A DNA stretch of 64,000 nt from Trypanosoma brucei (Eukaryota): positions 1,056,001 to 1,120,000 of the forward strand of contig CP000066.1 in the NCBI GenBank assembly GCA_000002445.1, written 5' to 3'. A program made the position numbers and the translations under genes. Below, in pieces: positions 34,762 through 55,598 of this stretch. Below the pieces are notes generated by a model. That model had not been told where the DNA came from. It did no database searches and saw nothing but the letters and a program-made list of their open reading frames with translations. Positions within the stretch are counted from its first letter, which is position 1. Each line of letters opens with the position of its first letter.

Positions 34762-35896
34762 GGTGAAGTATATATGTTTATTAATTCATACACACGCACA
34801 TATATATATAAATATATATATGTGCGTGTGTATGTGTGTGTACCTTTACTCCCATCATGTAATCACAGACAGGCAGATGCGGTCATTCAGTTATGGGAAC
34901 GTAGGTATTTGTATGGGTGCACACCTGGAGAGGACATTGGGAGGGGGAGGGGGAGGGGTCACGCGTGGGCTCTGGTTTAAGTACGTATTTGTCCAGTCGT
35001 CGTGGTCTTTGCTGTAATTTGAAATGGCAGCGCGTTTGCCATCATTACACGTACTGCCGTTGCTGCCTTCCTCAATTTGTCATATGTGCCACCAGGGGTT
35101 TTCAAAATCTATCGGGGCCTTTCCATTTCTTAGTGTATTTTTACTGATTTCGCCTTTTTTTTTTCATTGGCCCGCTTTTTGTTTTTGTTTTTTTGTTGTG
35201 GGTTTTGGTGGCTCTGCGTGTTGCTTACGCACACAAATTTGTAATGTAAAGAGGTTGTGCATAACAGTGGATACACGCCATATTTCCCTCCATGCTTCTC
35301 TTCTGTGTCCATATGTTTGTTTGTTTGTTTGTTTTTAGTTGTTATCACCTTTACATGGCCATTCAACGGGCGTAACCAGGGCCGGTGTGTAGTGGGTCGC
35401 CCCCTTTCTCACTCTCTGTCATTATTATTGTGTATATTTTGCACATTTTGTACTTTATCATGGTTCGTTTTAATATCTCTTTCATTCCCTTGTTTCATTA
35501 CCTAGTGTGTGCATCTCTCTCTGTGTATGTCTGTGTGTGTCTGTCTTTGTGTAATTTGTGCCTCCTCTTTTATCTAAAATAATATATATATATCTTTTCA
35601 CCTTTTTTTTTGGTTGACAGCGTCGGGTTGTTGTCAACAGCTTTCGCTGCGCAGGGTTTTCGCTGCCTTAACCCTGACGCTGCCGCCTCCTATTCTTTCT
35701 GCTTTAGCGGGCCTCTGCTGTGTTTGACATCAGTGTTTTGGGCCTCTTTTTCCTTTTGTGTTTTTTTAAGGAGTGTTTGTGTGTGTGTGTGGGGGGGGGG
35801 GCACTTTTTTCCTCAGAGTGAATCGCATTTTTTGTCTGTCCTAAACATATGTGCTGCGGGCTCGACATGTTCATGTCTTTACCATCGCTTTCAATA

Positions 35897-35924
35897 TTCC
35901 TTTTTTTTTCCCCCTCTCCTGTAG
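35897..35924 (+). promoter_or_regulatory. PolyY-AG trans-splice acceptor upstream of RRM gene copy 1
   Basis: cctttttttttccccctctcctgtag; the ORF-track start 35851 is GTG. Confidence 0.45.
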
Positions 35925-36096
35925 CAACGCTTCAGTGAGTCGTTCGCACGTTATCTTTACGTTACAGAGCAAATTAACAATCAAGCGTGCCTTCACTAAA
36001 AGGAGAAAAAAAAGAACAATAAAGGAAGTAACTTACAGCGACATTATTACCCCTATTATTATAATCTCTGCACGAATTACGCGGTACCAAAAGCAC

Positions 36097-37377
36097 ATGT
36101 CCCAGGAAGGGGTTCATCCTTATTCATCTCAAAGTAACGCCGCTCCCCTTCCCATATGTCCTACCAGCCCATACGAGTGGGATATTTCTTCAGGAACTCA
36201 TGATTCCGCTGGAGAAATGATGTCTTTGAGCATCTCTCGAGAATCTCCACCGTGCCCACGACGGCATGGAAGGCGATCGGATCGGACGCAACCGCGGGGA
36301 CCCTTTGTGAAGCTACCGGAAAGCAAATTAACACCAAACGAATGCCAAAGCAAAACGAACCTAATTGTACGTAATCTTTCCAATCGCGTGGATGAAGCGG
36401 TGCTTAAGCAAATCTTTTCGCCATATGGAGAAATTCTTTCTGCGGCTGTAATGCGAAATATTCATACGGGTGACAGTCTCGGAACGGCTTTTGTGCGTTT
36501 CGCCACAACAGAACAGGCGCGTGCGGCTCTGGTGGGTTGTCATGGGCGAGTGGTTTGTGGCCGTGTGCTGTCGGTTCAATGGGCGAAGAGGCAACACGAT
36601 GGCACTCCCGTAGGCGAGGCCCGAAAGAAAATTGTGAAGTTATTCATACGTAACATTCCTTTGGATGTGGGACCTGAAGATGTGCAACGTCTCTTTGAAC
36701 GTTTCGGTACTGTGGAGAGCGTATCACTGCACAAAGACACTGCTGCTGCAACTCCCACTACTGACAACAACCGACCCCAACGCCGCATTGCATTTGTGAC
36801 ATTTACGGAATCTGGTGTTGCTGATCGTGCAGCTGAGGCTGTACACAACACTCGTCCCTTCCCATCTCATGGTTCCGTCCCATTAATGGTAAAACTTGCA
36901 GAAGATCATTCGGAGCGCCGGCTCGCTGCTGCCGCTGCTGTGGCTGGTGGAGGTTCGGGGCATAACTCCCGTCGAAGACCGGAAAATCATCAGTCAAATT
37001 CCACCTCATCCCTAACTGCAAGTTGCGTTGGAGACATGACTCCAACAATTTCCGATGCGGGTCGCTTTAGCGCAGCGTCGGTTCATGTTGCTGTTCCCGA
37101 CTCACCTGAGGCTTCCCTAATAAATAACTTGCCATTGCCACGAGGCGGTGTAAAGCAACAAAGTCAACCGAGAGAAGCGGAGCGGTCTCAGCTCCCACTT
37201 GCTGCTGTGCTCGATATTTCTTTACTTTCGTGTTGCTCAGCACTTGCAGCGGAGGGGCTTCCACACATGTCGCCGGAAACGTCGAGTGTCAGCGGAAGTG
37301 ACCGCCAATGGGCGCGGTGTTATGTGCATGATCCATACAATCCGAGCCGTTCCCGCCAATACTTGGATGAAAAGTAG
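36097..37377 (+). CDS. RNA-binding protein with two RRM domains (family copy 1)
   Basis: First ATG in frame at 36097 (MSQEGV...). RRM1 'NLIVRNLSNRVDEAVLKQIFSPYGEILSAAVMRNIHTGDSLGTAFVRFATTEQARAAL'; RRM2 'KLFIRNIPLDVGPEDVQRLFERFGTVESVSLHKD...RRIAFVTFTESGVADRAAEAV'. Confidence 0.7.
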   Translation: MSQEGVHPYSSQSNAAPLPICPTSPYEWDISSGTHDSAGEMMSLSISRESPPCPRRHGRRSDRTQPRGPFVKLPESKLTPNECQSKTNLIVRNLSNRVDEAVLKQIFSPYGEILSAAVMRNIHTGDSLGTAFVRFATTEQARAALVGCHGRVVCGRVLSVQWAKRQHDGTPVGEARKKIVKLFIRNIPLDVGPEDVQRLFERFGTVESVSLHKDTAAATPTTDNNRPQRRIAFVTFTESGVADRAAEAVHNTRPFPSHGSVPLMVKLAEDHSERRLAAAAAVAGGGSGHNSRRRPENHQSNSTSSLTASCVGDMTPTISDAGRFSAASVHVAVPDSPEASLINNLPLPRGGVKQQSQPREAERSQLPLAAVLDISLLSCCSALAAEGLPHMSPETSSVSGSDRQWARCYVHDPYNPSRSRQYLDEK

Positions 37378-40300
37378 TGTTTTGTACAGATGGTTAACGC
37401 GTATTATGTGTATTTGTTTTGTTTCCTTCTTTTTATTTTGCTCATGTCAGTTTATTTATTCTTTTTTTCCCCCCTCCCCCTTCCATTCTCCCTTTTTTTT
37501 TCTGTTGTTGGTATTCTTTTAATTGGTCCAACTTTTTTTCTCGTCCGCCATGTGTGTGTGTGTGTGTGTATGTGTGTTTTGTTTTTGTTTTTGTCTCCAC
37601 TGTATTTTGTATTTTCCTTCCTTCCTTCACCACACTTCTTTTTTTTTTTGTTGTCGACCACTATCTGTATTTATTTTATATCCTCATGTGTTTGTGCTTT
37701 TGCTTTGTTGTATATCCTAATATATATATATATATATAATATACGTTAACTTTATTATTATTATTATTTTACGTTATTTATTTATTATCCTCCGATTGAG
37801 CTCGTGTCTTCCCGTTTCTCTGTATTTACACATTCTTCTTTTTTTTTTCCCCCTTTCCCTCTCCTTTGCGGTTACACTTGTGTTTATTTGCTTCATTTAT
37901 TTATTCGGTTTATTTTCTCCTGGTTCGCACGTGTACTGTTTTTCTTTTTTTTTTCTTTTTTCTTCCTGTTGTGTCCCATCAGGGGGAAAATAAATTCAAT
38001 CTTATATTTTGTATTTGACTACTCTTCCCTTCTTTTTGAGTTTTTGTTTTTCTCAAATTTCTTATTTTAAAAAAAAAAGAAATAAAAAAAACAAATCTCT
38101 TTTTTTTTTTTTTGATACGTTTTTATCTCCGTGTTTATTCTTCATTTCCCAATTATTTGCTTTCCTCGGTTGTCACGGCGGTCCGCCGTCCCCTTTTTAT
38201 TTATTTGTTTTTTTCTTTTTCTTATAGACACGACTTATATTTGTGAATATATATATATATTTTTACACCTTCCTCTTGTTCTTTAGTCATTTATTTACTA
38301 TTAACTAATTAATTTCACTTTCTTTTGTTTAATTATTTTTTTAAATTTTATTTGTAGTTATTATTCCAATAAATATATAATATAAATAAATGCTTGAAGG
38401 AACTGAAGTGTGTCCAAGTGGAGACTTGTTTTTGTTTTTTTAATAAAAAGAGAAGAAGATATAGAAAGTAAAGGGATGAAACAAGAGGAAAAAAAAGGGG
38501 GAAAAGTAATGAAAGTTCCTTTTATTTTCATAATAATATATTTATATATATATATATATATTTATTTATTTATATATTTATGTATTGTTTGTTTTGTTTA
38601 TTTAATGGCAAACTTCACGTGTGCGTATGCGTGTAACGGGAGGGAAAACCAAAAAAGAGTGAAAAGGAAATATTTCTCCGTTTGTTTGTTTGTTTGTTTT
38701 TTGAGTTTCTGGTTTTAAAAGAAAAAAAGTAATACAAAACAAAATAAAGCAAAATAGCGAAATGACGAAATAAATGACATTTGTACGAAAGTCATGATAT
38801 TAATAAATATATATAATTAATCACTTCTAATGCCTGGTTTCCACCGTTATTATTATTATTATTATTATTATTGTTTCGATTGTTATGTTTCTTCCTTCCT
38901 TCTATTTTGTTTGTTTGTTCGTTTGTGTTCCGACTCAAATGAAGCGGGAGGGAAAACAACACAACACAAGACAAAACATAACGAAAAAAAAATGAAATGA
39001 AATAAAGTAAAGTAAAAGTATCGGAATCAAATGAGTTAAAACGCTGGGAGAATTAAAATGATTGAGCGAAAAGAGTAAAGGAAGAATATATATATATATA
39101 TATAGAAGGAGGAATAATGCATAAAGGAATTATGAGGTGGGGAATAAATAAATAAATAAATAAATAAATAAATGAGTGAATAAATGAATTATTGAGGGAA
39201 ATGTGGACACTACTCAGTTCATTTCCGTAACGATTCCGCGCACCTTTTTAATTTTATTATATTATTATTTATGTTGTTATTATTACTATTTTTATTATCG
39301 TTGCTTTCGTGATGCGGTCCTCTCTTCATTTCCCCTTCTTTTTTTCTCAAATAATAGTTATTTGTTGTTGTTGTTGTTTTTGCCTGTCCCCGTGTTCTTT
39401 CTTCTTGTTTCTTTTAAAAAATTTTATTCACCATTATATTAAAATTAAAATTATTATTATTATTATTGTAATATCATTATTTATTCGGTGTCTTGTTATG
39501 TCCCTCTCCCCGAAAAATAAATAATAAAAAGAAAAATAAATTAATATTTCAAATTCACGGCACTCGGAAGCGGAGGAGAAAAAGGAAATAAACAAACGAT
39601 AACAATAATAGAAAGAATAGAAATAATCAAAAATAAATTATTCATATTTATTTATTTATTCATTCATGTTAAATAATGACGAGAAGAAGTTGAAAATAAA
39701 AAAAAAATAAAACAAAAAAAAGAAAAAAGTAGAAGTAAATGAAAGGAAAACAAAAGACCGAAGTGATTTGTTTTATCTTATTTAGGGTGCTTTAAAACAT
39801 TTGGCCGACAAATACAATACGTGAAGTTATTTTCTCTTCTTTTTATTATATTTATTTTGCCTGAACCTTATTTGTTATTTAATCGCCCTTCTTTTTTCTT
39901 TTTTGTTTTTTGTTGTTGATAGCTCCTCTGAAATGAAAGAAAAAAAAACAAGATAAAAAAAAAGAAACATATATATATATATATATATATGAGCGGAAAT
40001 GTATGTTTTTTTTTTTTTTTTGGGGGGGGGTGTGTGAGGGAAAGTTTTCCCTTTCTTTCCTTTTTATTTTCTTTTCACAGTTGTTCCTCCTCACTCAAAA
40101 ACAAAACAACAACAACAAAAAAAAAAAACAGCTACTATTACTACTGCTAATTGTGTCACCATTTATTTCCTGCTATTATAATTGTTAAATGCTTCCGTTA
40201 TTATTATTGTTTTTATTATTATTGATATTAATATTATTGATTTTGTTATGGTTGAACTCCCTTAAGTACATGTGCTTCTCTTCATTTTCCCCCTCTTTTC

Positions 40301-41681
40301 TTCTCTTCTCTTTTCTTTTTTTTTTTCTTTCCTTTAAAAAAAAAAAATCATTTGTTTTGTTTTCTTCTTTACATATCAGCGAAGGAATTACAATAAATTA
40401 AACAGCAGCAGCGACATTTCCGTCCAGAGTTAAAAACAAAAAACAAAAACAAAACAACAACAAAGAAGGAAACTGAAGGAAGGAAGTGATCGAATTAAAG
40501 AAAGAAAAGGCAAAGGCAAAAACAAAACAAATAAAATAGTGCGAAAAGAAAGGGAAGGAAAGTGGAAAGGCAGAGAGAAAGAAAAAAAAAAGAACAAAAA
40601 AAAAAGGGAAAGAAGAGAGAGAGAGAGAGAAGAAAATAAATAAATAAAAGCGAAAGGGGAAAAGGGAATTCATTTACTTGTATTTGTACTTGTGTATTTA
40701 TAAGTAAATACAAAAGAAGAAAAAGGACCAAAAAAAAAAAAGATACAACAACAGCAGCACCCCCCCCCACACACACAAAAAAAAAAGAAGCGGAATAACA
40801 CGGACACACACAAAAGTGAAAGTGAGCGTGTCACGTGAGAAGCAACAAAAAAAAAAAGAAGAGCAAAAGGAGGGTCGGATAAGTCCTTGGGTGATTTTTT
40901 TTTTTTTTTTAAAGGAGAAAAAAGGTGCGGAAAAAAAAAAAGAAAATTAAAACAAAGGGTACGAGGCGCACTTTACCGGGCCACATTGCTTTTTTTTTTT
41001 TTCAATACCATATTTTGGTTGGTTGGTTGTTGTTGTTTTGTCTTGTGTTTCTTTTGCTCTTAAAGGGTGAGTGTAGTTGACACAACTGCAAACACAAGAA
41101 GGGAGAAGAAATAACATATACGCATTTAATAAAGGGAGACAAATACAGCAACCACCACAAAATAGCTGAAAAGGTTGCAAAGGAAGAGAGAGAGAGAGAG
41201 AAAAAAAAAACACCAACACCAACAACAACAACAACAACAAACGATCTGAGAAGTGACTGAAATCACTCGCAGCGGTTTTTGAGCGTGAGTGAACTTCACA
41301 ATACAGGCGAGAGGCAGCCGCACAGCCTCCTTTCACCCTTCACTCACGAGGGTTCCGTGAGGCAGTTAAGGAGCGTGACGAATTAATAAAAAAAAGAAAC
41401 AAGAAAAAAAAAAGAAGAGGAGGAGAAACAGCAACATCAGGTGATATAGCTGTGGGACTGTGAAGAGGAGGTTTCACACACAAGAGGGAGTGTGGTACCA
41501 AAACTATACATACAGATAAAAGCAAGTGCGCATAACCTTCAAGGGAATACGAGAGGGCGTTGTTTGTGTATTTGTTTGCGTTTTTGCGTGTGAGTTTGCG
41601 TGTGTGTGTGTCTGAGAGAGAATAGTAAAAAACAACAACAACAACAACAGCAACAAACAAACCCCAACTGCAGGGTGAGTC
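37378..41681. repeat. 4.3 kb ORF-free AT-rich low-complexity/microsatellite span (probable long 3' UTR/intergenic region)
   Basis: Homopolymer A/T runs, (TA)n, (AAAT)n 39144-39172, (TTA)n 38845-38872, (GA)n 40612-40632, (AAC)n 41220-41250; only short F/L/K-rich ORFs translating low complexity. Confidence 0.7.
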
Positions 41682-43463
41682 ATGGAAGTTCCTTTTGAAG
41701 AAGGGACGCAGTTGGTTCATGCAATTGAGCGGTCCCAGCAACGGATTTTGGATGCCTCAGCGGTGAGTGACGTGGAGACGGTACCACCGCCGACAACTAC
41801 TGCAAATGCAAATGCAACTGCTGCTGTTGCTGTTGCTCTTAAGGGTTTAGCCACCACATCTGCGCATGTGCCGCTGCCACTCTTTGGTTTGGATGATGAG
41901 GGTCGAAGTGGCAAAACGCCATTGAATAATGAAAGCGGTCCGGGAACGAGCAGTAGTGGAAGCCATAGCAGCAGCAGCAATGTTCCTGTTGCGAGTTTGC
42001 GAGCCGGTACCGCTGGTACTCCTACCGTCACCCCGGCTGCGGACTCCCGTGCGGAATCTCAAAGTAGGACAAATCTCTTTGTGAGCAATATTCCCCATTT
42101 GTTAGGGAAAAATGAGTTGGTAGATTTATTTTCGCCATATGGAGAAATTCTTTCTGCGGCTGTAATGCGAAATATTCATACGGGTGACAGTCTCGGAACG
42201 GCTTTTGTGCGTTTCGCCACAACAGAACAGGCACAGGCGGCGATGGAGGCTCTAACGGGTTATGTGCTGGAGGGCCGCTCGATGGTTGTTCAATGGGCGA
42301 AGAGGCAACACGACGACACTCCCGTAGGCGAGGCCCGAAAGAAAATTGTGAAGTTATTCGTACGTAACATTCCTTTGGATGTCAGTGACGCCGATCTAAC
42401 TGAAGTGTTCAGCGCGTTTGGTCCAGTGAAGGGCGTGTCAATACATAAAGACACCACGCCAAACGCCGGTCGCCACTTGGAACGTCGCATCGCCTTCATT
42501 ACGTTCCACACCGACGGAGTCGCTGAGAGGGCAGCTGAGGCCATCCACAACACTCGTCCCTTTCACAGTTGTGGAAAAATTCCCCTTATGGTGAAGCTTG
42601 CGGAGGATAACCCCAGACATGGACGCAGTCACAACGCACAAAGTGGCCGCAGCGCTTGGGGACGGAATGGCAACACAAATCAAAACAACGATGGCAGCGT
42701 CAGTCGCAGTAGTCCAAGTGGCAGCGTTAGAAGTAACAAGTCATTAGGGATATCGGGCCATGGTTCCGCGAGAGGGGATATTCGTGGACTCGGTATTGAC
42801 ACACCAGGTGGCCTTCCGGGACTTTTTTCGCTCGGAACCGATGCTTGCGGTTTCCCGGGAGGCGCTTTTGCCGTCTTTCCGACTATGATCCCACAGGGCG
42901 GTGTTTTTGTGCCTCAACCCGTTCTAAACGTTGGCGTAGGCGTAAATGGTCAGGCAATGGCACTGAGGACTCCAATGTTTTGGCATCAGGCCGGCTCCAC
43001 CATTCCGGTTGGTGTTATGGGCCAAAGTCAATCCGCAAATATGGGAGCCACAGGCGGCAATTGTTCACATCAGGGGTTTGCATCCGTTTCTGAGGGTTCA
43101 TCATCCGAGCAGCAGCGTGTGGACATCTTTTCGTCCTTTGCACAACCGCCGCCATTCCCCACAGATCCGTTAGCGGGTCTTGTAGATTCCACGGGGTTTT
43201 CGTTTACGGCTCCTCCTCCTCCTCCTCCTGCTCCTGCTCCTCTTTCTTCTTCTGCAGTGGAGGTCGGCCCGGTTGTAAAAGATGATGTGGAGCCAACGAT
43301 GTGTCCGCATCCGAGCAGTAGTGATGTGTATGACGCCGATTCATCATTATCGCTTGATTTTCTGGAGAATTTGGGCGCGGCGGAGTTGTGCCACGTGACG
43401 ACTCCGTCTGGTGATGAGGACCACCGCCTGCATGCCCCCGGCTCATTTGTGCCGTTTTTGTAA
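41682..43463 (+). CDS. RNA-binding protein with two RRM domains and Gly/Gln/Ser-rich disordered C-terminal tail (family copy 2)
   Basis: ATG 41682; RRM1 'NLFVSNIPHLLGKNELVDLFSPYGEILSAAVMRNIHTGDSLGTAFVRFATTEQAQAAM', RRM2 'KLFVRNIPLDVSDADLTEVFSAFGPVKGVSIHKD...RRIAFITFHTDGVAERAAEAI'; nucleotide blocks identical to copy 1 (42129-42232 = 36415-36518). Confidence 0.75.
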   Translation: MEVPFEEGTQLVHAIERSQQRILDASAVSDVETVPPPTTTANANATAAVAVALKGLATTSAHVPLPLFGLDDEGRSGKTPLNNESGPGTSSSGSHSSSSNVPVASLRAGTAGTPTVTPAADSRAESQSRTNLFVSNIPHLLGKNELVDLFSPYGEILSAAVMRNIHTGDSLGTAFVRFATTEQAQAAMEALTGYVLEGRSMVVQWAKRQHDDTPVGEARKKIVKLFVRNIPLDVSDADLTEVFSAFGPVKGVSIHKDTTPNAGRHLERRIAFITFHTDGVAERAAEAIHNTRPFHSCGKIPLMVKLAEDNPRHGRSHNAQSGRSAWGRNGNTNQNNDGSVSRSSPSGSVRSNKSLGISGHGSARGDIRGLGIDTPGGLPGLFSLGTDACGFPGGAFAVFPTMIPQGGVFVPQPVLNVGVGVNGQAMALRTPMFWHQAGSTIPVGVMGQSQSANMGATGGNCSHQGFASVSEGSSSEQQRVDIFSSFAQPPPFPTDPLAGLVDSTGFSFTAPPPPPPAPAPLSSSAVEVGPVVKDDVEPTMCPHPSSSDVYDADSSLSLDFLENLGAAELCHVTTPSGDEDHRLHAPGSFVPFL

Positions 43464-44361
43464 CACACAGATGACTATAAAAGAATACGAAGGGTGTGTA
43501 TGTGTGTGGGTTACGAGTTTGTGTACCCTTCGTTCCATTTCGTTTCGCTCCGTTCCGTTTCTTCTCGTTTTCGTTTTCGTTTTTGTTTCGTTTTCGTTTT
43601 CGTTTTTGTTTTGTTTGTTTTTTTAATTTGGGGGACGGGGGATGGGAGGGGTTCCCACTTTTCGGAAACTTGTCTGCGTTCGTGCTTCTGTGTGCCTTTA
43701 GAAGAGGATCAAAAGGAGGAGGAGAGGAGTAGGAAGAAAGGGGGCAAATGATTTTTTTTTTTAAAAAAGAAAATAATAACAAGAGGGAAATGGCAGAGTG
43801 TACGGAGGGGAGTTATTGTACCCTTACTCACCTGTAAAAAAAAAAAAGAAATAGAAGAGTAAATAATAAAATGAAAAACAAAACAAAAAAAAACAACAAC
43901 AAAAGGAAAGGAAAGGAAAGGAAATGGATTCGGTGATTAGAACATAGTGAGCACAAATGGTTGGAGAAGAAAGTTCATAAAAAGAAGGTTTGCAAATGTG
44001 CGCGTTGTAGTGAATTTGGTGTACGTGTGTACGGCGGGGTGGGTTAGGGGTGGCAGGGAAGGAACAAGGAATGTTGTATATTTTTGTAATGAAAAATATA
44101 GTGAAACAAGAGGAATGTCACGCGTTTTTATTGTTATGTGCGCTTTATTATCACTGCTATTGTTATTGTTATCATTATTATTATTATTATTATTACTGTT
44201 ATTGTTATTGTTTTGTTGCTTACCAGAGAGATTTAATGAAGGATTCAGGTACGTGATTGATTGTGTGAAGAATATTGATGATGGATACGGATATGAATAT
44301 ATGAATATATGAATAATATTGTGATAATGATATACAGGACTGAAGTGTGTATGTGTGGAGA

Positions 44362-44392
<31 letters not shown>

Positions 44393-47300: not shown

Positions 47301-47870
47301 TGTACACATTCATATACGTTATGGTCACATAAATTTAGAGAAGGATATGAAGAAGGAGGAGGAGGTAAAAAAAGAAAAAAAAATAAAGGAATGCAAAAAA
47401 AATAAAATATATAAATAAATATATATATATATACACAGTTCGAATGAAGATTAACAAGTGAAAAGTTGATGGGATTATGGAATTCCAAAAATAAATAAAA
47501 AAAAAGAGGAAAAATAAAATGGGGGGGAGGGAAGAGAGACCGGGTTACGCAATAATAATAATAATAATAATATTTTTTCCCTCCCTCTTTTCTATTTTCT
47601 TCTTCTTCTTTTTTCTTTTTTTCTTTTTGTGCCTCACACGTGTGTATTTATTTATATATGTGTTTATATTCCGTCTCATATCTTTTTCCCACCATCACTG
47701 CTATGGTTTTGATAGCGGAATTCAGCAGAAGATACAACACCAACACGTTGCATTTACACGGGCACATTTTTTTTTTTTTGCTTCTTCATATATTTTTACT
47801 CACGCGGTTTTTTTGTTGGTATATTTGGTAAAATGCCCCGGTGTTTTTATTGTTTTTTCTTGTTATTGCC

Positions 47871-47906
<36 letters not shown>

Positions 47907-48089
47907 GTGTTCGCTGCTTTTCCCTCCCAAACCGTAACGCCGTGTGTCATGTAAACAAGTGATTTTTGTTGTTTCCTTTTTTTCTTTTTCTTTTCCTTTT
48001 TTATTTTATTTTAATTTGATTAATTCTTCCTTTCTTTCCTATCAAAAACAAAACAAAACAGAAAATAAATAAAAACACATATACACATA

Positions 48090-48102
<13 letters not shown>

Positions 48103-48146
<44 letters not shown>
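48103..48146. repeat. (CA)n dinucleotide microsatellite, about 22 units
   Basis: acacacacac... read directly. Confidence 0.9.
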
Positions 48147-48148
<2 letters not shown>

Positions 48149-48404
48149 GAATAAATAATAATAATAATAAAACAACCGTTCATTTGCCACCGTTAGCATA
48201 TTTTACTAACAACAGCATCATTTCAATAATATTAATATCAATAATAATAATAATAATAACGGTAGTAATGGTAACTATTATATTATCAATATTATTATTA
48301 CGTTATTATTGTTATGTTTATTTATTTATTTTGAATTGTTTTTGATATTATTATTATTATTGATATTATTGTTGTTGTTGTTCTTATGTTAATGAGATAT
48401 GAGG

Positions 48405-48408
<4 letters not shown>

Positions 48409-48455
<47 letters not shown>
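48409..48455. repeat. (TA)n dinucleotide microsatellite, about 23 units
   Basis: tatatata... read directly. Confidence 0.9.
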
Positions 48456-48458
<3 letters not shown>

Positions 48459-51400
48459 TACATTTATTATTATTATTATTATTATTTTAAAGAGCGTGGC
48501 ACCGAAGTGCTGAATAAAAGTGAAAATGAAAATGAAACGAAATTTTATGTTATGTTATGTTGTGTTGTGTTGTGTTATGTTTTTATTTTATTTTTGAATG
48601 GAGATGGGAAAGAAACACATAAGGCACTGAAAATGGAATGCATCGTTCATCGTTTTTTTTTTGTTTTCTAGAAACAACCCCGGAGAAACCCGAAGGGGAA
48701 ATACAAAAAAAAAAGGAAAGGGAATATAATATGTATATTTTTATATTTATAGCAATGGGATGATGAAAGGTGGAGGGAAGAATATGCGAGGATACGTATG
48801 GAGTTTTATGTTGTATTAATAATTTCAGCAAAAAAAAAAAGGAGGAGGAGGAAAGGAAGAACAGGAAAATAAAAAGGAAAAATAAAAAAAAAAGATAAAA
48901 TAAAAGCAAAAAAAAAAACTTGAAATATGTGTGGACGTGATAACATAATCACGCCTTTCCCCTGTTCTTTGCTTTTAATTTTTATTTTTGTTAGCGTTGT
49001 TTTTCTTGTCATTTGCTACGAAAGACCTGAGATAAATGCGTATCTGTTTTGTTGTTTTTTTTTCTTTTGTTAATAATCTCTTTATTATGTTATATTATAT
49101 TATATATTGTACTCAAATTAAATTAAATTAAATTTTTGTACTGTATTGTCTTGTCTTTTCTTGTCGTAACGCTGCCAGTAGTCGCAGCAGCAGTTTTGGT
49201 CTCGAGGGAAGAGATGGATTGAAATGAATTTTAGAAAAAAAAAACAATAGGAAATAATAATAATAATAATTATTATTATTATTATTGTTGTTATTGTTAT
49301 TGTTATTGGTAAAACCGAAATAATTGTAAAGCAACGAGGAGGGGATGGTAATGAAAGTGGTGAAAAGGTACGAGTGGTGCATGGAACTCTTTTCTTTCTT
49401 TTTTTTAGAAAAAAAAGAAAGAAAAGAGAATGACATGAAGAATTTTTATGCCCGTTATACTTTAGATGTAAAGGAATAACAACAGAAACAAAAACAAACG
49501 ATAATAATAATATTAATAACAACAATATCATCATCATCAAGGAAGTCGCTTAACAAAAAAAAAAAGAAAATGTACACAAAGGTGCAAAAATGCACAAACT
49601 TATAAATATATAAATATAAATATAAATATGTATGAATACATGTTTGTATTTTGTATTTTGTATATATTTATATATACGTAAATTTCTTTAAGTGTTACGA
49701 TTGCTATGTTGAAGTGAAGCGATTCATTTGACGGAGCGGTACCCGGTAATCGCACGAATTTTATTTATGCCATTTCCTTACCGGACTGTCCTCTTTTTTT
49801 TTTTTTCTTTCACTTCCTCTTCATATTGTTCCTTTTCTGATTTATTGTTTTTGTTTTATTTACTTATTTTTATTTCCTCCCCTCTTAGGCATATTTCCCC
49901 CACCTTCCTTCCCTCCGTGGTTTCATTTGCTATCGGCAGTACCGATCTGTGTTCTTTTTTTTTTTAAAATAAAAGAAAAAGGAAAACAAAAAAAAACTTT
50001 TGGCTTTGATATTTCCCCCGATTATTATTGTTATTATTGTTATTATTGTTATTATTATTATTGTTATTGTTATTATTGTTTTTGTTATCGTTTGTTTTCA
50101 TTGCTGTGTTTTCATCGTGTAACCGCATCTTTTTTTTTTGTTATTTGTTTTTCTTTCCTTTTGTGTACGCTTATATTTGTACAAATATATTTGCATATGT
50201 ATCTGCGTGAATGCGTGGTTTGTGTTTTGTTTTTGTTTTATTTTATTTTCCTGCTTCTCACTTGCACGTCAGTTTCAACATCAACAACATCAACATCAAC
50301 ATCAACAACAAAAAGAAAAAGAAAAAAGAAAAAGAAAAAGAAAAAGAAAGCAGCTCTGCCCACATTCCCTCACCCGTTTCCTGTTTTTTTCACTTACACT
50401 TTTTGTTTTTGTTTTTGTTTCCATTTTGCTCTGCTCGACTCTTTTTTGTTTTTTTTTTGTTTTCAAGTTTGTTTCCACCGCGTGACTTTCTTTTTCCATC
50501 CCAGTGTGTTATGATTAGGATTATGACAGCTATAGTTACTACAATTATAATTATAATTACAATTGCAATTTATTGTTATTATGATTGTGGTTGTTGTTAT
50601 TTGCCCCCTTTTCATTGTTCGTCTGTGTCATTCTTCCACGCCCCTCTGCCTTTTTTTCTTTTCCTTTTTTTCTTTTCTTTTCTTTTTTTTCTTTTCCCAT
50701 TTTGTTTGTTCGTTTGTTGTTTTGAATTTATTCATTCATTCATTCGTTTTCTCTTTGCCTTTTATTTTTACTTTTAATTGAATGAAAGGCTTTTCACTTA
50801 TGTGTGTTGCCACCTGCGGGAATTTTTTTCACACACCTCATCTCTTTTTTTTTTCTCTCTCTCTCTCTCTTTCTCTTTCTCTTTCTCTTCTTTTTCTTCT
50901 TTTGCCACTTTTCCCTTCTTTCTTCAGCTGAGTCAAACAATCCGTAATATATATAAATAAATATATAAAAATATAAATATATATATATATATCTTTTCCC
51001 TGTTGTTTTTTTTTCTTCTTCTTTTACTGATATTACTCACATATGTATTCTTTTACTTGAGCCCTCATTCCATTTATCTTTTTTCCTTCTTATTCTTCTT
51101 TGTTCTTTTTCTTTTTTTCATATTTCACTTTATTCGAATAACTTTTGCTCGTGTAAATGATAAAAATAAAATAGAAAGAACAAAGAAGAAGAAAGGGAGA
51201 CAGCCATACAAAGAGGTGGGAAATAGGAAAAGGTAGAAGAAAATAATAAAAAAAAAAGAGAGAGTGAGAGTAAGAGTGAGAAATAGTGCGCGTGTTTGTG
51301 TGAAAGTTGTTCGCATTAGTGTTTTTGACGACACGTGAGCGGACGGTGCTTTTTTTGTTTGTTTGTTTGTTTTGTTTTGTTTTCAGTACTTAACCAACGG

Positions 51401-51570
51401 AAAGAGAAAAGGGAGAGAGAGAGAGAAAAAAAAAGAAAGAAAAAAATATATAAATATACACATAAATATATAAATAGTAGCAAAGGTTGAAAAGAAAACA
51501 ATAGCACCGTATCGAAGTCAAAAGGAAGTGAGTGAGTGAGTGAGTGCGTAAGAGGAAGGAGGAGAATAAA

Positions 51571-53223
51571 ATGCCTCCAAAACGCTCAAAAGGTGTAACA
51601 TTTAAACTCGTCCACCAGCCATATGATGACGCGGAGAACACCGGAGGGCGTAAAGCCATAATGGTGGAAGAGCGAATAGTGCGTCAGCATTTACCGGCAT
51701 CGGGTTCAGGACGCGGACGCCGTCAGCGGGATGATGATGACAGCTTTTGTGATGATGGAGGAGCCTCTATGTCAACTGTAAGTCGTTGGGCACAAGAATG
51801 GGATGAGACATCGGCACCAACTGAACGTAACGCAGGAATGTTAGAAGGTGAAGAGGATTACTTAAATAGGCACAACTTTCTTTTGGCACAGGACCCTGAT
51901 GATGATGATGATAATAATAATAATAATAAAAATAAAAATGATGAATGTGCTGATGATGGCGGCTATGAGGATATTAGTGATAATGACGGTGGTGCATGTG
52001 AAGGAGTTACTAAGAAGTCTAGAAGTGAAGCCGCTGACGGTGAGGAGGAAAGTAGTGACGATAAATTGTTTGATGACCAGGAGGAAGGTGAAGTAACGGA
52101 TGAGTTTCTGAGACAGTTGGTTTTTGGCGGAGAAGACGATGATTTGGATGTTGACAGGCGCCGATGTGGTGATGATGATGATGATGATGATGACGGCAAT
52201 GATGACGGAAGTACAAACCGTGACAACGTCCCGGCAAGTTTTGTGCCACATGACACGACACGGCGTGCGATTGACCGCCAGTTCACACAACTGATGCGTG
52301 AGTTCACCGTTGATGAGAGGTTAAATGACGCTTATACCGATGACCCGCGGACGCAAGGTGCGCTAGACGCTGACCAGTACCTCCGCGCTATGGAAGAGTT
52401 TGTCGTTGAGCGTGCCGGTATTGATTATAGAACTGCTGAGCCAATGCGAAATAAGGGCCTTATTCACCAGCTAAAGAGCATGGCATACGGCGTTCCAACC
52501 GACATGACGGCTTCGGGTGATGTAATCACAACGACAATTTTGCCTGACAAAAAAATACGTTTCGCAACGGAATTTAAACGGGAGACAGAGGAGATCCGGA
52601 GAGCCGCTCGGGAGCGTATATTGCGCCGTCAGGCTGAGGCTCAGAAGAACGCTGCGGACGGTGAAGTGAAAATAGGTCATGATAGCATGGGCGCTAGTGA
52701 AGAAATGGATGATGATTGTAATCACGATGATGGCACATTTCAGGTGAGGAATGCTGCAAAAGCGAATAACTCATCAGAATGTGGCAGCGAGTCGCAGGAG
52801 GAGGAGGAGGAGGGGGAAACATATGTTGTGCGGAGGATCGTAGATAAGTCCAACCGCCTTGATTGCGAGACAGTTTTATCAACTTACTCCACGTACTTCA
52901 ATCAACCTAACGTCATACGGGCCCCAGACGCGGGAAAGAAGCGGAAGGGTAAAAAAGTTACTCAACCGCACCGTGACAATAATGAGGGTGATGACATGTC
53001 GCAGGAGGTGCCGGACTTGAGCACGTCGGTGTTGTCCTTAGCGAAAGGAAAGAATGAATCGAAGGAGGAGAAAAAGATGCGAAAGCAGTTGGTAAAGGAT
53101 CTGAAGCGCGAACGCCGTGGGAAGAAGAAGGAACTTCGACAAGTGTACAAGACAATGGAGGCTGAAGAAGCCCGCCGTGTGAAGGAGTCGCAAACGGCGA
53201 GGAAGACATTGTCCTTCTTGTAA
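51571..53223 (+). CDS. LTV1: Ribosome biogenesis factor LTV1 (low-temperature viability protein) homologue
   Basis: Start re-called at ATG 51571; the ORF-track start 51544 is GTG. N-terminus 'MPPKRSKGVTFKLVHQPYDDAEN' matches LTV1 'M.KKKFIDKK.SVTFHLVHRSQ.DPL'; highly acidic D/E/N runs; C-terminal basic KR-rich tail. Confidence 0.8.
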   Translation: MPPKRSKGVTFKLVHQPYDDAENTGGRKAIMVEERIVRQHLPASGSGRGRRQRDDDDSFCDDGGASMSTVSRWAQEWDETSAPTERNAGMLEGEEDYLNRHNFLLAQDPDDDDDNNNNNKNKNDECADDGGYEDISDNDGGACEGVTKKSRSEAADGEEESSDDKLFDDQEEGEVTDEFLRQLVFGGEDDDLDVDRRRCGDDDDDDDDGNDDGSTNRDNVPASFVPHDTTRRAIDRQFTQLMREFTVDERLNDAYTDDPRTQGALDADQYLRAMEEFVVERAGIDYRTAEPMRNKGLIHQLKSMAYGVPTDMTASGDVITTTILPDKKIRFATEFKRETEEIRRAARERILRRQAEAQKNAADGEVKIGHDSMGASEEMDDDCNHDDGTFQVRNAAKANNSSECGSESQEEEEEGETYVVRRIVDKSNRLDCETVLSTYSTYFNQPNVIRAPDAGKKRKGKKVTQPHRDNNEGDDMSQEVPDLSTSVLSLAKGKNESKEEKKMRKQLVKDLKRERRGKKKELRQVYKTMEAEEARRVKESQTARKTLSFL

Positions 53224-54464
53224 AGGTAGAGAAATGAAAAGTTTTTGTCGTTTGTTTCCTTTTAATTGCCACTTTTGTGTGGATTCACGCCAGGAGGTGC
53301 CACACGGTGTTTTGCAATGTAGCGATGTGTTGTTACCGCTCCATGTGTTTCTCCTGTTGTCCGTCGCAATTAAAACTTCACTTCCGTTTAGCAGCCGTTT
53401 GTAGTGGTTACTGGCCGTTGTGATTGGTGAATCAATTAATGTCTTGCAGTGTATATGCGTTTATGCATACTTTTCACCTCTCCTGCAGGTGCTTCTTTTT
53501 GGGGAAGTGGAATTCATATGCACACGCAACACAAGGTGAGCACAATCTAAAAGTATTCGAGTAACTTTATTTGTGGTAATACAGGAAAAAAGTGAAATAC
53601 AAATATATATATATAAGAGATGCAAATGTAGGGGGGGGGAGCTAAGAAGAGAAGAGCAGTGAAACAACAACAACCGCTAGGGATTCGGCTAAGGGAAGAG
53701 TAAACGTGGGGAATGTTAGTGAATTTCAACTGCGCCACGTCCGTGGTCAACACACACACACACATATATGTCATGTATATATCATGTATATAATATATAT
53801 ACATATATATGTGTGTTTATTTATGAGTGCGTGTTAGAATCGAGAAGCATTACGCCTTATGTCTCTTGCTGAATCATGTGTCTTTTTTTTTTTTTTAAAA
53901 AAAGCACATGAGTGTAGCAGCGCCCTTCTGTTTGTTGCATTTCAAGGTTTTTTTTATTTTTACTTCCCCTTTCTCTTTTTCACATTCCGCAGTATAACGT
54001 TGCACAGTTTGCAAAGGCCGAGAACTCCTCTAAGAAGTCGCATGAACTTTAACACTCTCCTCCAACTCTATTGCTTGTCGCTATCTTACTCCCTTCCTTC
54101 CTTCCTTCCTTCCTTTTCATTTCATTTTATTTTATTTACTCTACTTTTACTTGCGCATTTTCTTATTGTTGCTGTTGTTCCCTGCTTTTGTAATATTAGT
54201 TTATTTTATCTGATACACTTGTGACCCTTTGGAGGGGGAGGGGTGAGGAAACCAACGTATCACCAGGTTTGTAAGGTGCAAAACGAAGGAAGCGGGTAGT
54301 TTCAGGGGGAGGGGCCCTGTTCGGCGTTCATAACAAATCTAAACACTGAAACAGACAGAAAAAAAAAAGAAATAATTATACATACATTAAAAACTCACAA
54401 AAGTAGCCTAGCAGTAGGAGGCATCTTGTAGAGGGAATAACCGAACAGGGGTAACGCACCGCAC

Positions 54465-55598
54465 ATGATGCCGTGCAAGTCATTTCCTCCGTCCTCTAAA
54501 TTATTGAGGCATCGGTCAAGCGAACTTTATAGCCGTGACAATTTATTCATGTGTAACTTATCGGCTGCCGTGGATGAAGCGGTGCTTAAGCAAATCTTTT
54601 CGCCATATGGAGAAATTCTTTCTGCGGCTGTAATGCGAAATATTCATACGGGTGACAGTCTCGGAACGGCTTTTGTGCGTTTCGCCACAACAGAACAGGC
54701 GCGTGCGGCTCTGGTGGGTTGTCATGGGCGAGTGGTTTGTGGCCGTGTGCTGTCGGTTCAATGGGCGAAGAGGCAACACGATGGCACTCCCGTAGGCGAG
54801 GCCCGAAAGAAAATTGTGAAGTTATTCATACGTAACATTCCTTTGGATGTGGGACCTGAAGATGTGCAACGTCTCTTTGAACGTTTCGGTACTGTGGAGA
54901 GCGTATCACTGCACAAAGACACTGCTGCTGCAACTCCCACTACTGACAACAGCCGACCCCAACGCCGCATTGCATTTGTGACATTTACGGAATCTGGTGT
55001 TGCTGATCGTGCAGCTGAGGCTGTACACAACACTCGTCCCTTCCCATCTCATGGTTCCGTCCCATTAATGGTAAAACTTGCAGAAGATCATTCGGAGCGC
55101 CGGCTCGCTGCTGCCGCTGCTGTGGCTGGTGGAGGTTCGGGGCATAACTCCTCATCATTTTGTGTTCCTCAGCCCCGTTTTGTTGGCCGACAGCAGCCAA
55201 AAGTTCTGCGCCCCCCATCGGGCGAACGTTTGCCCGTGCAACCGCTTTGTGTTTTGGGCTCGAAAGGAAGCGGCCCATCACCAATTCTCCGCTCTCCAAA
55301 TATTGTGGCAGCTACGCGAGTTGATGATTTTATGGATATTGCGGTTGGGCGTTGGAAAATGCCGGAACCCCTTTCTACTACAATAAACACATGTTGTACC
55401 GTTATGCCACAGGCTCCGGTTGGAACCAATGGTAAATTTTTTACCGTTTCAGGTAGTGGACTCTGCGCGGCATCGCGATCAGCCATAAGTTGTTCCATAT
55501 GTGAGAGCAAAAAAGGCATGAGGTACACTCATGAACCATACCGAAGCGTTGTGTGTAACCCCACTGGCATTCCGGTGCCGCCTTCACCAGTGGATTAA
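54465..55598 (+). CDS. RNA-binding protein with two RRM domains, short N-terminus and divergent C-terminus (family copy 3)
   Basis: ATG 54465; 583-bp block 54569-55151 is identical (1 mismatch) to copy 1 36387-36969, encoding both RRMs; flanks diverged. Confidence 0.65.
   Translation: MMPCKSFPPSSKLLRHRSSELYSRDNLFMCNLSAAVDEAVLKQIFSPYGEILSAAVMRNIHTGDSLGTAFVRFATTEQARAALVGCHGRVVCGRVLSVQWAKRQHDGTPVGEARKKIVKLFIRNIPLDVGPEDVQRLFERFGTVESVSLHKDTAAATPTTDNSRPQRRIAFVTFTESGVADRAAEAVHNTRPFPSHGSVPLMVKLAEDHSERRLAAAAAVAGGGSGHNSSSFCVPQPRFVGRQQPKVLRPPSGERLPVQPLCVLGSKGSGPSPILRSPNIVAATRVDDFMDIAVGRWKMPEPLSTTINTCCTVMPQAPVGTNGKFFTVSGSGLCAASRSAISCSICESKKGMRYTHEPYRSVVCNPTGIPVPPSPVD

Follow-up and report, generated by a model that had tools for sequence, protein, structure and literature searches.

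The window analysed here, a stretch of 64,000 nucleotides, is taken from chromosome 3 of Trypanosoma brucei brucei TREU927 and contains three genes for proteins with two RRMs. All features described below lie on the forward (+) strand. Copy 1 (36097..37377; 426 aa) is Tb927.3.3930, or DRBD6B, with two RRM_1 domains (Pfam) and a C-terminal YVHDPY. Copy 2 (41682..43463; 593 aa) is Tb927.3.3940, or DRBD11, which combines a long N-terminus, two RRMs (Pfam) and a G/Q/S/P-rich tail. Copy 3 (54465..55598; 377 aa) is Tb927.3.3960, or DRBD6A, with a short N-terminus, two RRMs (Pfam) and a C-terminal YTHEPY. A gap of 4.3 kb separates copies 1 and 2, and one of 11 kb, which contains Tb927.3.3950, separates copies 2 and 3. 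The DRBD proteins were reportedly named by De Gaudenzi et al. in 2005.

The proteins of copies 2 and 3 match TREU927 XP_843986.1 and XP_843988.1 exactly. Copy 1 falls in the same protein cluster as XP_843985.1, and its protein is 99.5% identical to 426-aa proteins of T. b. equiperdum and T. b. gambiense. The HDPY motif ties copy 1 to Tb927.3.3930, as the HEPY motif ties copy 3 to Tb927.3.3960. In the TREU927 annotation, copy 1 has 386 aa and starts at 36217; the comparison favours 36097 as the probable start, because the first 40 aa are kept in T. vivax and T. theileri. With two RRM_1 domains each and identity to Tb927.3.3930, Tb927.3.3940 and Tb927.3.3960, all three copies are kinetoplastid DRBD6/DRBD11 tandem-RRM proteins. 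Their best sequence matches in the PDB are PABP (E = 2e-35), Sxl (6e-16) and HuC/HuD/HuR (about 1e-14). Like the members of the PABP/Sex-lethal/ELAV-Hu class, they have two canonical RRM_1 domains in which RNP2 and RNP1 motifs are present. The DRBD6/DRBD11 family differs from this class in being kinetoplastid-specific and in having tails unrelated to those of PABP, Sxl or Hu; moreover, copies 1 and 3 bear the trypanosome MKT1-binding HxPY motif.

This motif is HDPY in copy 1 (37327..37338) and HEPY in copy 3 (55530..55541); both are of the type seen in MKT1 interaction partners, and each is kept in the orthologs of its own copy. Both proteins end in Y-x-H-(D/E/N)-P-Y, a mark of MKT1 partners, while no HxPY motif is present in copy 2 in any species compared. 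The published two-hybrid partners of MKT1 include Tb927.3.3930 with its H(N/D/E)PY motif. Copies 1 and 3 would fit the MKT1-interacting RNA-binding proteins, with the motif seen here and the interaction taken from the published screen. In a tethering screen, DRBD11 (copy 2) was a repressor and DRBD6A (copy 3) an activator. The initial annotation of this locus had proposed that the three proteins have the same RNA specificity and different effector tails. This fits copy 2 when set against copies 1 and 3, but not copies 1 and 3 themselves, the tails of which share HxPY.

Shared tracts within the RRM cores

A 583-bp block of copy 1 (36387..36969) recurs in copy 3 (54569..55151) at a constant offset of 18182, with 582/583 positions identical. 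It encodes aa 97–291 of copy 1; it starts at alpha1 of RRM1, spans RRM2 and continues for 21 further codons. The sole mismatch is at 36770, which is A (Asn) in copy 1, and G54952 (Ser) in copy 3. Copy 2 shares with the other copies just two short tracts of RRM1. Tract A (36415..36518 in copy 1, aa 107–141) includes RNP1 of RRM1 and is identical in all three copies, with 104/104 matches to 42129..42232 in copy 2 and to 54597–54700 in copy 3. Tract B (36574..36668 in copy 1, aa 160–191) covers the end of RRM1, the linker and RNP2 of RRM2, and matches 42288..42382 in copy 2 at 92/95 positions. The offset between copies 1 and 2 is constant at 5714. Both tracts are also common to copies 2 and 3, where tract B shows the same three mismatches as copy 1 does. 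The borders of the 583-bp block, its single mismatch and both blocks shared by copies 1 and 2 (the second with three mismatches) were thus reproduced as the initial annotation had given them.

Tracts A and B are separated by an unconverted island (36519..36573) that corresponds to alpha2-beta4 of RRM1 and reads ARAALVGCHGRVVCGRVLSV in copy 1 and AQAAMEALTGYVLEGRSMVV in copy 2, with 26/55 nucleotides identical. Outside the tracts, copies 1 and 2 are just 47–56% identical. The 104-nt run between them was reached by 0/5000 codon shuffles of the aligned core, the maximum over all shuffles being 54. An all-against-all blastn of the window found no similarity elsewhere between the three loci; flanks and UTRs are unshared, and the likeness is restricted to an internal part of the CDS. 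The sequence on the 5' side of the block had been described as 60–70% similar, which was not borne out: the 57 nt 5' of the block are identical at 25 positions (44%, ungapped). The 3' side is unrelated, as was claimed, with 22/100 positions identical over the next 100 nt, which is the random level. There is no sign of GC-biased conversion, as GC3 is 0.41 in the block and 0.40–0.51 in the tails. Taken together, the sequences share discrete tracts with abrupt borders that are longer than expected by chance.

The tracts do not coincide exactly with the RRM core, as was first thought. The block does cover the RRM region; however, it leaves out RNP2/beta1 of RRM1 and overshoots RRM2 by 21 codons, which encode a poorly conserved Ala/Gly linker. 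None of the tracts includes RNP2 of RRM1, which reads NLIVRNL in copy 1 (36358..36378), NLFVSNI in copy 2 (42072..42092) and NLFMCNL in copy 3 (54540..54560). The 5' ends of all tracts are at least 10 codons downstream of this motif. RNP2/beta1 of RRM1 is outside the tracts in five species and stays paralog-specific; in copy 1, RNP2 is NLI-x-R-x-L in all species.

Cores and tails across species and strains

The order of genes around the three copies in T. theileri (RPC34, kinase, copy 1, copy 2, hypothetical gene, copy 3, zf-LYAR) is that of T. brucei, and in T. melophagium the order kinase, copy 1, copy 2, hypothetical gene, copy 3 was found as far as the loci extend. Partial gene order was recovered for copies 1 and 2 in T. 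vivax, for copies 2 and 3 in T. cruzi and for copy 3 followed by zf-LYAR in T. congolense. When the 4.3-kb spacer that follows copy 1 and the 8.1-kb spacer that follows copy 2 were compared with the other species by blastn and tblastx, no conserved genes or elements were found beyond the T. theileri/T. melophagium pair. A tree of the tails groups the sequences by paralog: the T. theileri and T. melophagium pairs of copies 1, 2 and 3 each have 100% bootstrap support, and copy 3 of T. b. brucei joins copy 3 of T. congolense with 81%. The RNP2 and HxPY signatures are likewise paralog-specific and common across species. The N-terminus of copy 3, which had been called truncated, is better described as ancestral, since the short form is kept in T. 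congolense, T. theileri, T. melophagium and T. cruzi. Judged from these sequences, gene order and the N- and C-terminal tails show the three paralogs to be older than the Trypanosoma radiation, because both group by paralog across species.

The tree of the cores groups the sequences by species instead. Copies 1 and 3 of T. b. brucei, copies 1 and 2 of T. vivax, copies 1 and 3 of T. theileri and copies 1 and 3 of T. melophagium were paired with 100% support each, and the clustering of all three copies by species had a bootstrap of about 65%. Core dS was 0.05–0.80 between paralogs within a species and 0.65–0.80 between T. theileri and T. melophagium orthologs, and was saturated between T. brucei and T. 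congolense or T. vivax. Where the amino acid is the same, 71–97% of the codons are identical within species as against 31–71% between species; the figure for copies 1 and 3 is 97%, and that for T. brucei against other species is 31–45%. Identical runs of 104–336 nt, synonymous sites included, were found between paralogs within T. brucei, T. vivax, T. theileri and T. melophagium, and such lengths were reached by 0–2 of 5000 codon shuffles. The runs between orthologs of different species were 8–35 nt long, non-significant and interrupted by periodic third-position mismatches. No identical blocks like those of T. brucei occur in T. congolense copy 3 or in T. vivax copies 1 and 2, which agrees with what the initial annotation had predicted for conversion. 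At the protein level, T. congolense copy 3 has an identical run of 67 aa with copy 2 of its own species, and of at most 16 aa with T. brucei copy 3. In the core, paralogs within a species are thus closer to each other than orthologs between species, at synonymous sites too.

The three copies were homogenised independently after the split of T. theileri and T. melophagium, and in both species a paralog-specific CHG/CNG island persists inside the converted RRM1. Copies 2 and 3 of T. cruzi served as a negative control. They encode the same conserved core at 63% identity, and no identical run exceeds 13 nt; these paralogs show the outcome of selection alone.

Strains of T. brucei were compared as well. 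In T. b. gambiense DAL972, the block has the same ends, and copies 1 and 3 match in it at 583/583 positions. A36770 is limited to copy 1 of TREU927 and to a chimera in the T. equiperdum OVI assembly, and copy 1 of DAL972 and of the chromosome-scale assembly of T. b. equiperdum has G at this site, like copy 3. Because A36770 is private in this way, it is a post-conversion point change or a polymorphism. In the chromosome-scale assembly of T. b. equiperdum, copy 1 has three changes within 4 nt, all matching copy 2, and through this 3-nt copy-2 patch tract A is 9 nt longer (113 nt). The chimera in the OVI assembly has the N-terminus of copy 1 and the C-terminus of copy 3, joined within the block, while the tail of copy 1 and copy 2 are on orphan contigs of 2.2 kb and 6.8 kb. 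The T. congolense contig with copy 3 is 6.3 kb long, and its end is 944 bp upstream of the gene. It had been advised to exclude assembly collapse, and the same structure was indeed recovered from DAL972 in three copies and from the chromosome-scale T. b. equiperdum assembly in copies 1 and 2. The independent assemblies and the strain-private variants of the block indicate that the identity is real in the genome and does not stem from assembly.

Probable gene conversion and its alternatives

The pattern is very probably the result of recurrent, domain-limited interlocus gene conversion among the RRM cores of DRBD6B, DRBD11 and DRBD6A. The recent ectopic conversion, or concerted evolution, of dispersed two-RRM paralogs that had been suggested for this locus is supported by cores that group by species and by tails and gene order that follow the paralog. 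The genes are ancient syntenic paralogs, the tandem-RRM coding cores of which would have been repeatedly overwritten by one another via non-allelic (interlocus) conversion. This may take place during homologous-recombination repair that uses as template a paralog 5.7–18 kb away on the same chromosome, presumably with the involvement of RAD51-type recombination. Since the start and resolution of conversion would need remaining similarity between the copies, the tracts would be limited to the RRM1–RRM2 segment. The N-terminal tails, RNP2/beta1 of RRM1 and the C-terminal effector tails would evolve as ordinary orthologs and stay paralog-specific. Each conversion would renew the identity needed for the next, and therefore the process could be self-sustaining; it may have halted where divergence became too great, as in T. 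cruzi.

The latest event between DRBD6B and DRBD6A, that of the 583-bp block, is probably no older than the divergence of the subspecies. Its identity would fit one conversion in the ancestor of T. brucei followed by little mutation, and would fit repeated events equally well. DRBD11 has taken part in shorter exchanges, of 104 and 95 bp, the ends of which still vary among strains. Conversion thus appears to be ongoing, on the basis of the complete identity (583/583) in DAL972, the private mismatch of TREU927 and the patch in T. b. equiperdum. Clues to its direction conflict: RRM1 of copies 1 and 3 has a copy-1-type 'CHG', and the 'HSERR-AAAA' overhang on the 3' side is similar to T. congolense copy 3.

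In principle, the RRM core could be kept identical without any transfer of DNA by strong purifying selection on the protein, on codon usage or on an RNA element within the ORF. The core protein is highly conserved across Trypanosoma and some runs of 15–35 nt are common even to orthologs. Yet orthologs with nearly the same protein differ at most synonymous sites, with dS saturated against T. congolense and T. vivax, the T. cruzi paralogs are 63% identical under the same protein constraint, and the block extends 21 codons into the poorly conserved linker. Selection without transfer is virtually negligible as an explanation. Nucleotide-level selection or an embedded RNA, as a separate candidate, was ruled out by the synonymous divergence between species together with a search of the window for Rfam families, in which no match was found. 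That one copy's reads were used to build both is hardly credible either. It is true that the repeat does break assemblies, as seen in the OVI chimera with its orphan contigs and in the contig of T. congolense copy 3. Nevertheless, TREU927 and DAL972 resolve three copies with distinct flanks and the same block borders, the chromosome-scale T. b. equiperdum assembly resolves copies 1 and 2, and the pattern is also present in assemblies of four other species; A36770 and the 3-nt patch inside the block indicate that the copies were assembled separately.

A very recent duplication would leave the copies as alike as they are (one mismatch in 583 bp), T. vivax is without copy 3 and T. cruzi without copy 1, and copy 3 might thus be a young duplicate of copy 1, or the reverse, that acquired new ends later. 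Against this origin, which we consider most unlikely, copy 3 is syntenic between the hypothetical gene and zf-LYAR, and its short N-terminus, NLF-type RNP2 and YTH(E/N)PY tail are found in T. congolense, T. theileri, T. melophagium and T. cruzi. Copy 1 has signatures of its own in T. vivax, T. grayi, T. theileri and T. melophagium, and flanks and UTRs are without similarity. A recent segmental duplication was ruled out, as there is no similarity beyond the CDS cores. Reciprocal unequal crossing-over (NAHR) is unlikely too, if a little less so. The copies are direct repeats on one chromosome and the OVI chimera is the exact product of a crossover within the block; a single crossover, however, would delete or duplicate 18 kb with DRBD11 and Tb927.3.3950, and species and strains alike have kept the gene order and the copy number. 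A mosaic of short tracts with unconverted islands needs double exchanges, which are operationally the same as conversion.

Consequences and related systems

If interlocus gene conversion has shaped these genes, DRBD6A and DRBD6B would be near-redundant activators with nearly the same RNA-binding surface and a common MKT1-recruiting motif, differing in RNP2 and the N-termini. DRBD11 would share part of RRM1 only, and its different tail would be repressive. The shared RNA-binding module would be kept uniform while the effector tails diverge. It is conceivable, though rather doubtful, that conversion has been selectively retained because it keeps antagonistic regulators (the activators DRBD6A and DRBD6B and the repressor-like DRBD11) on the same RNA motif, with RNP2/beta1 and the tails protected; if true, the RNA-binding 'reader' of a regulon would co-evolve as one unit. 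The position of RNP2 outside the tracts in five species, the CHG/CNG island and the independent homogenisation after the T. theileri/T. melophagium split are compatible with such retention.

The identity also has practical consequences. Because of the 583-bp identity, DRBD6A and DRBD6B are indistinguishable to RNA-seq reads, RNAi fragments, CRISPR guides and peptides that derive from the RRM core, and DRBD11 can be separated only partly. In one proteomics study, the three DRBDs were reported as a single protein group. This paralog ambiguity should be borne in mind when published results on 'DRBD6' from expression studies and screens are interpreted. The repeat lies behind the chimeric gene model in the OVI assembly of T. 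equiperdum, and phylogenies of these proteins based on the RRMs would give a false signal of species-specific duplications.

The process itself is familiar, and this DRBD case appears to be undescribed. In it, regulators of distinct function show concerted evolution that is limited to one domain, with strong statistical support and independently in several Trypanosoma lineages. Interlocus conversion limited to a domain or segment is known from the human gamma-globin genes HBG1/HBG2, RHD/RHCE and the opsin genes. These have in common with the DRBDs the abrupt intragenic borders, a similarity that is higher between paralogs than between orthologs, and tracts bounded by the loss of homology. They differ in organism and gene class, and in the DRBDs three paralogs exchange sequence in a mosaic, independently in at least four trypanosome lineages. 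In T. brucei, the VSG genes undergo segmental (mosaic) gene conversion, which makes diversity at the expression site under immune selection. Here too, gene segments are copied between non-allelic loci by homologous recombination in the same organism; in contrast, DRBD conversion removes diversity, and does so between housekeeping regulatory genes in the chromosome core.

Chimaeric copies in 21/47 tandem arrays of T. brucei were attributed to partial gene conversion (Jackson 2007, BMC Evol Biol 7:54, PMC1855330). The organism and the process are the same, as is the cladistic criterion, namely that paralogs cluster by species. The DRBD cluster is unlisted in that catalogue, in which array 16/16a of chromosome 3 (1.05–1.08 Mb) is followed by array 17 (1.148 Mb), and it is not a tandem array of the catalogued kind: instead of adjacent head-to-tail repeats, the copies lie at distances of 5.7 kb and 18 kb and enclose an unrelated gene. 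The DRBDs differ further from these arrays in that they are old paralogs with different tails and reported activities, among which conversion is limited to one domain.

Gene identities and shared coding blocks

All ORFs of more than 200 aa in the window lie on the + strand, a sign of a polycistronic unit. Three of them, copy 1 (36097-37377), copy 2 (41682-43463) and copy 3 (54465-55598), encode proteins with two RRM_1 domains each. The products of copies 2 and 3 are identical to annotated proteins from chromosome 3 (1.65 Mb) of T. brucei brucei TREU927, and that of copy 1 corresponds to a protein annotated with 426 aa in both T. b. gambiense and T. b. equiperdum. The TREU927 annotation of copy 1 is 386 aa long and starts at an internal Met (36217). 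The 40 codons upstream of it (36097-36216) hold a P-(I/V)-C-P...(E/D)-W motif that is kept in copy 1 of T. vivax, T. theileri and T. melophagium, and the annotations of DAL972 and T. b. equiperdum use the 426-aa form, which looks correct. Published MKT1 two-hybrid work described Tb927.3.3930 as DRBD6B, with an HDPY motif, and Tb927.3.3960 as DRBD6A, with an HEPY motif, both being two-hybrid partners of MKT1; Tb927.3.3940 is DRBD11 in the literature. The C-termini YVHDPY of copy 1 and YTHEPY of copy 3 fit these motifs; copies 1, 2 and 3 are therefore DRBD6B, DRBD11 and DRBD6A, respectively.

The coordinates, match counts and offsets of the shared blocks in the initial annotation were all reproduced on re-comparison, and the offsets are constant. 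Copies 1 and 3 match at 582 positions over 583 bp (36387-36969 versus 54569-55151), with A36770/G54952 as the lone mismatch. Copies 1 and 2 are identical over 104/104 nt in one tract (36415-36518 versus 42129-42232) and differ at three positions in another (36574-36668 versus 42288-42382), and both tracts are also common to copy 3. Between these two tracts, 26/55 positions of copies 1 and 2 are identical, and their RRM2 regions are 56% identical. Identity drops sharply at both edges of the 583-bp block, to 22/100 on the 3' side and to 25/57 (44%) in the 57 nt on the 5' side, where a similarity of 60-70% had been given. No GC3 excess was found in the block. An all-against-all blastn of the window revealed no similarity among the three loci beyond these matches. 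The shared DNA comes from the interior of each coding sequence and is not a duplicated segment with its flanks.

The spacers that follow copy 1 (37378-41681, 4.3 kb) and copy 2 (43464-51570, 8.1 kb) are unusually long and of low complexity. The corresponding lengths are 3.9 and 7.0 kb in T. vivax and 4.0 and 7.5 kb in T. theileri; the T. cruzi spacer is short (2.4 kb). Comparison of the spacers among distant species revealed no conserved ORF or sequence; the spacers could represent long regulatory 3' UTRs.

Ancient paralogs with homogenised cores

Gene order, sequence signatures and a tree of the tails show that the three paralogs are ancient. The order in T. theileri is RPC34, kinase, copy 1, copy 2, a hypothetical gene, copy 3 and zf-LYAR, and T. 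melophagium has the same order from the kinase to copy 3, within the extent of its loci. Copy 3 of T. congolense adjoins zf-LYAR. Across species, copy 1 is marked by the RNP2 NLI-x-R-x-L and the C-terminus Y(V/M)H(D/N)PY...SR-x-Y; copy 2 by a long N-terminus, the RNP2 NLF-x-SN(I/F) and the lack of an HxPY motif; and copy 3 by a very short N-terminus, the RNP2 NLF-x-x-(N/H)-L and the C-terminus YTH(E/N)PY. A neighbour-joining tree of the tails sorts by paralog, with the T. theileri/T. melophagium pairs of copies 1, 2 and 3 each at 100% and copy 3 of T. brucei with copy 3 of T. congolense at 81%.

Copy number varies among lineages. T. vivax holds copies 1 and 2 only (L001 20055-21524), and a tblastn search at its syntenic site found no third copy; T. 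cruzi holds copies 2 and 3 only, without copy 1 (L013 3002-4143). The Leishmaniinae matches comprise a single homolog for each species, which carries YRHNPY at its C-terminus. The ORF between copies 2 and 3 (51571-53223, +), presumably Tb927.3.3950 from its position, encodes an acidic protein of 550 aa that includes low-complexity regions; it gave no match in a Pfam search and is syntenically conserved in all trypanosomes examined.

The tree of the RRM1-RRM2 core, built on a codon alignment, sorts by species. Copies 1 and 3 of T. brucei, copies 1 and 2 of T. vivax, and copies 1 and 3 of T. theileri and of T. melophagium pair at 100% each, and all three copies cluster in both T. theileri and T. 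melophagium (~65%). Synonymous divergence in the core is 0.05 between copies 1 and 3 of T. brucei, 0.16 and 0.22 for the same pair in T. theileri and T. melophagium, and 0.43 between copies 1 and 2 of T. vivax; it is 0.65-0.80 between T. theileri and T. melophagium orthologs, and saturated between T. brucei and the T. congolense or T. vivax orthologs. Mismatch maps of within-species pairs show perfect runs of 104-336 nt interrupted by short divergent islands, and those of ortholog pairs about one mismatch per three bases. The comparison of orthologous loci, which the initial annotation had proposed as a check on conversion, thus bears it out: long identical runs occur within species only, and ortholog runs reach just 8-35 nt. 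In codon-shuffle tests, the within-species runs were reached in 0-2/5000 trials, and the ortholog runs were nothing unusual. Codons for the same amino acid are identical in 71-97% of cases within species versus 31-71% between species.

Some species-specific residues are common to all paralogs of one species: 3/3 T. melophagium copies have DITVDDL..LFQQYGPVKDVTL where 3/3 T. theileri copies have DVT..EL..LFRQYGPVKEISI, and both T. vivax copies share SAAIMRN, TTENARA and ARAKIMK. In RRM1, T. congolense copy 3 is identical to its own copy 2 over a run of 67 aa, whereas its identical runs with T. brucei copy 3 do not exceed 16 aa. T. cruzi serves as a control, as its pattern is the outcome of purifying selection without conversion: the products of copies 2 and 3 have the conserved core in common, yet the DNA identity is 63% and the longest run 13 nt.

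Recency, assembly and proposed mechanism of conversion

Conversion in T. brucei is recent and still under way. T. b. gambiense DAL972 has copies 1 and 3 identical at 583/583 positions, with both block boundaries at the same nucleotides as in the window; the A at 36770 is confined to TREU927 copy 1 and the sequence from T. equiperdum OVI. In copy 1 of a chromosome-scale T. b. equiperdum assembly, three bases within 4 nt (at the equivalents of 36519, 36521 and 36522) depart from TREU927, and all three are those of copy 2, which lengthens the copy 1/copy 2 tract to 113 nt. Because the three changes are clustered and all match the paralog, they represent a conversion patch rather than point mutations. 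Its position at a tract edge indicates that tract edges are polymorphic among strains.

Near-identical blocks could also arise as an assembly artefact, and one assembly illustrates this. T. equiperdum OVI (CZPT02000499.1; L009 3001-4320) contains a 439-aa chimeric model with the N-terminus of copy 1 and the C-terminus of copy 3, the junction being inside the block. The chimera sits directly between the kinase and zf-LYAR genes, the intervening 18 kb being absent, and the copy 1 3' tail (P0044) and copy 2 (P0012) are found elsewhere in this assembly, on small orphan contigs (2.2 kb and 6.8 kb). This is most simply, and probably, an assembly collapse; a real deletion allele produced by NAHR is possible. 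TREU927 and DAL972 each resolve the three copies with distinct flanks, and strain-private variants are present inside the 583-bp block; to the extent that assemblies can demonstrate it, the identity of the block is therefore real.

The within-species nucleotide identity falls in discrete tracts that include silent sites, and the converted pairs differ by lineage, giving a mosaic. We infer that the tracts arose by homologous-recombination repair with a paralog as the template, i.e., interlocus gene conversion, which is well documented in T. brucei arrays (Jackson 2007, PMC1855330). The limits of the tracts would be the limits of alignable sequence. In every tract the 5' edge is 10 codons or more downstream of the RNP2 start, and the 3' edges are mostly at or just past '...MVKLAED'. 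Conversion would perpetuate itself until divergence passes the recombination requirement; in T. cruzi this point has apparently been passed and conversion has stopped. RNP2 is converted in no case, and a paralog-specific island of about 10 codons (copy 1 CHG(K/R)RVFGR versus copy 3 CNGRS(V/L)(C/F)GR) survives amid converted sequence in RRM1 alpha2-beta4 of T. theileri and T. melophagium. As a hypothesis only, selection against homogenising paralog-specific RNA contacts may account for the survival of the island or the exclusion of RNP2.

Functional implications and relation to known systems

In published screens, DRBD6A scored as an activator on tethering to a reporter mRNA, and DRBD11 fell among the suppressors. 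The 'DRBD6' mRNA increases upon heat shock and is at its highest in salivary-gland parasites, where DRBD11 is likewise up-regulated. The proposal that the proteins combine the same RNA specificity with different effector tails holds only in part for DRBD11 versus DRBD6A/B, since what DRBD11 has in common with them is limited to two short tracts of RRM1. It fails for DRBD6A versus DRBD6B, which have nearly the whole RNA-binding surface and the effector motif in common and differ in the RNP2 stacking position (Phe versus Ile) and in their N-termini. The case is instructive as domain-limited conversion that recurs in several lineages, with T. cruzi as an escape, and it has a practical bearing on the assignment of reads and peptides and on genome assembly.

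Elsewhere in the window, two adjacent large ORFs at 15344-19192 and 20071-23769 (+; 1282 and 1232 aa) share a 650-nt block that is 84% identical (18336-18970 versus 22952-23595). By size and position, they match the 3849-bp 'lipase domain protein' pair, a known tandem pair listed as array 16 (chr3:1071344-1079769; Jackson 2007, PMC1855330). This match would put the window at about chr3:1,056,001-1,120,000.

The core of the three RNA-binding proteins is a generic tandem RRM of the same type as in PABP, Sxl and Hu. Partial gene conversion was reported in 21/47 arrays (Jackson 2007, PMC1855330); the three-gene cluster is absent from the text, tables and array catalogue of that study, and the few papers that name DRBD6 or these gene ids do not discuss the identity. 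The cluster is therefore a new and well-documented instance of a known process, in which the copies, unlike those of the catalogued arrays, are dispersed rather than tandem.
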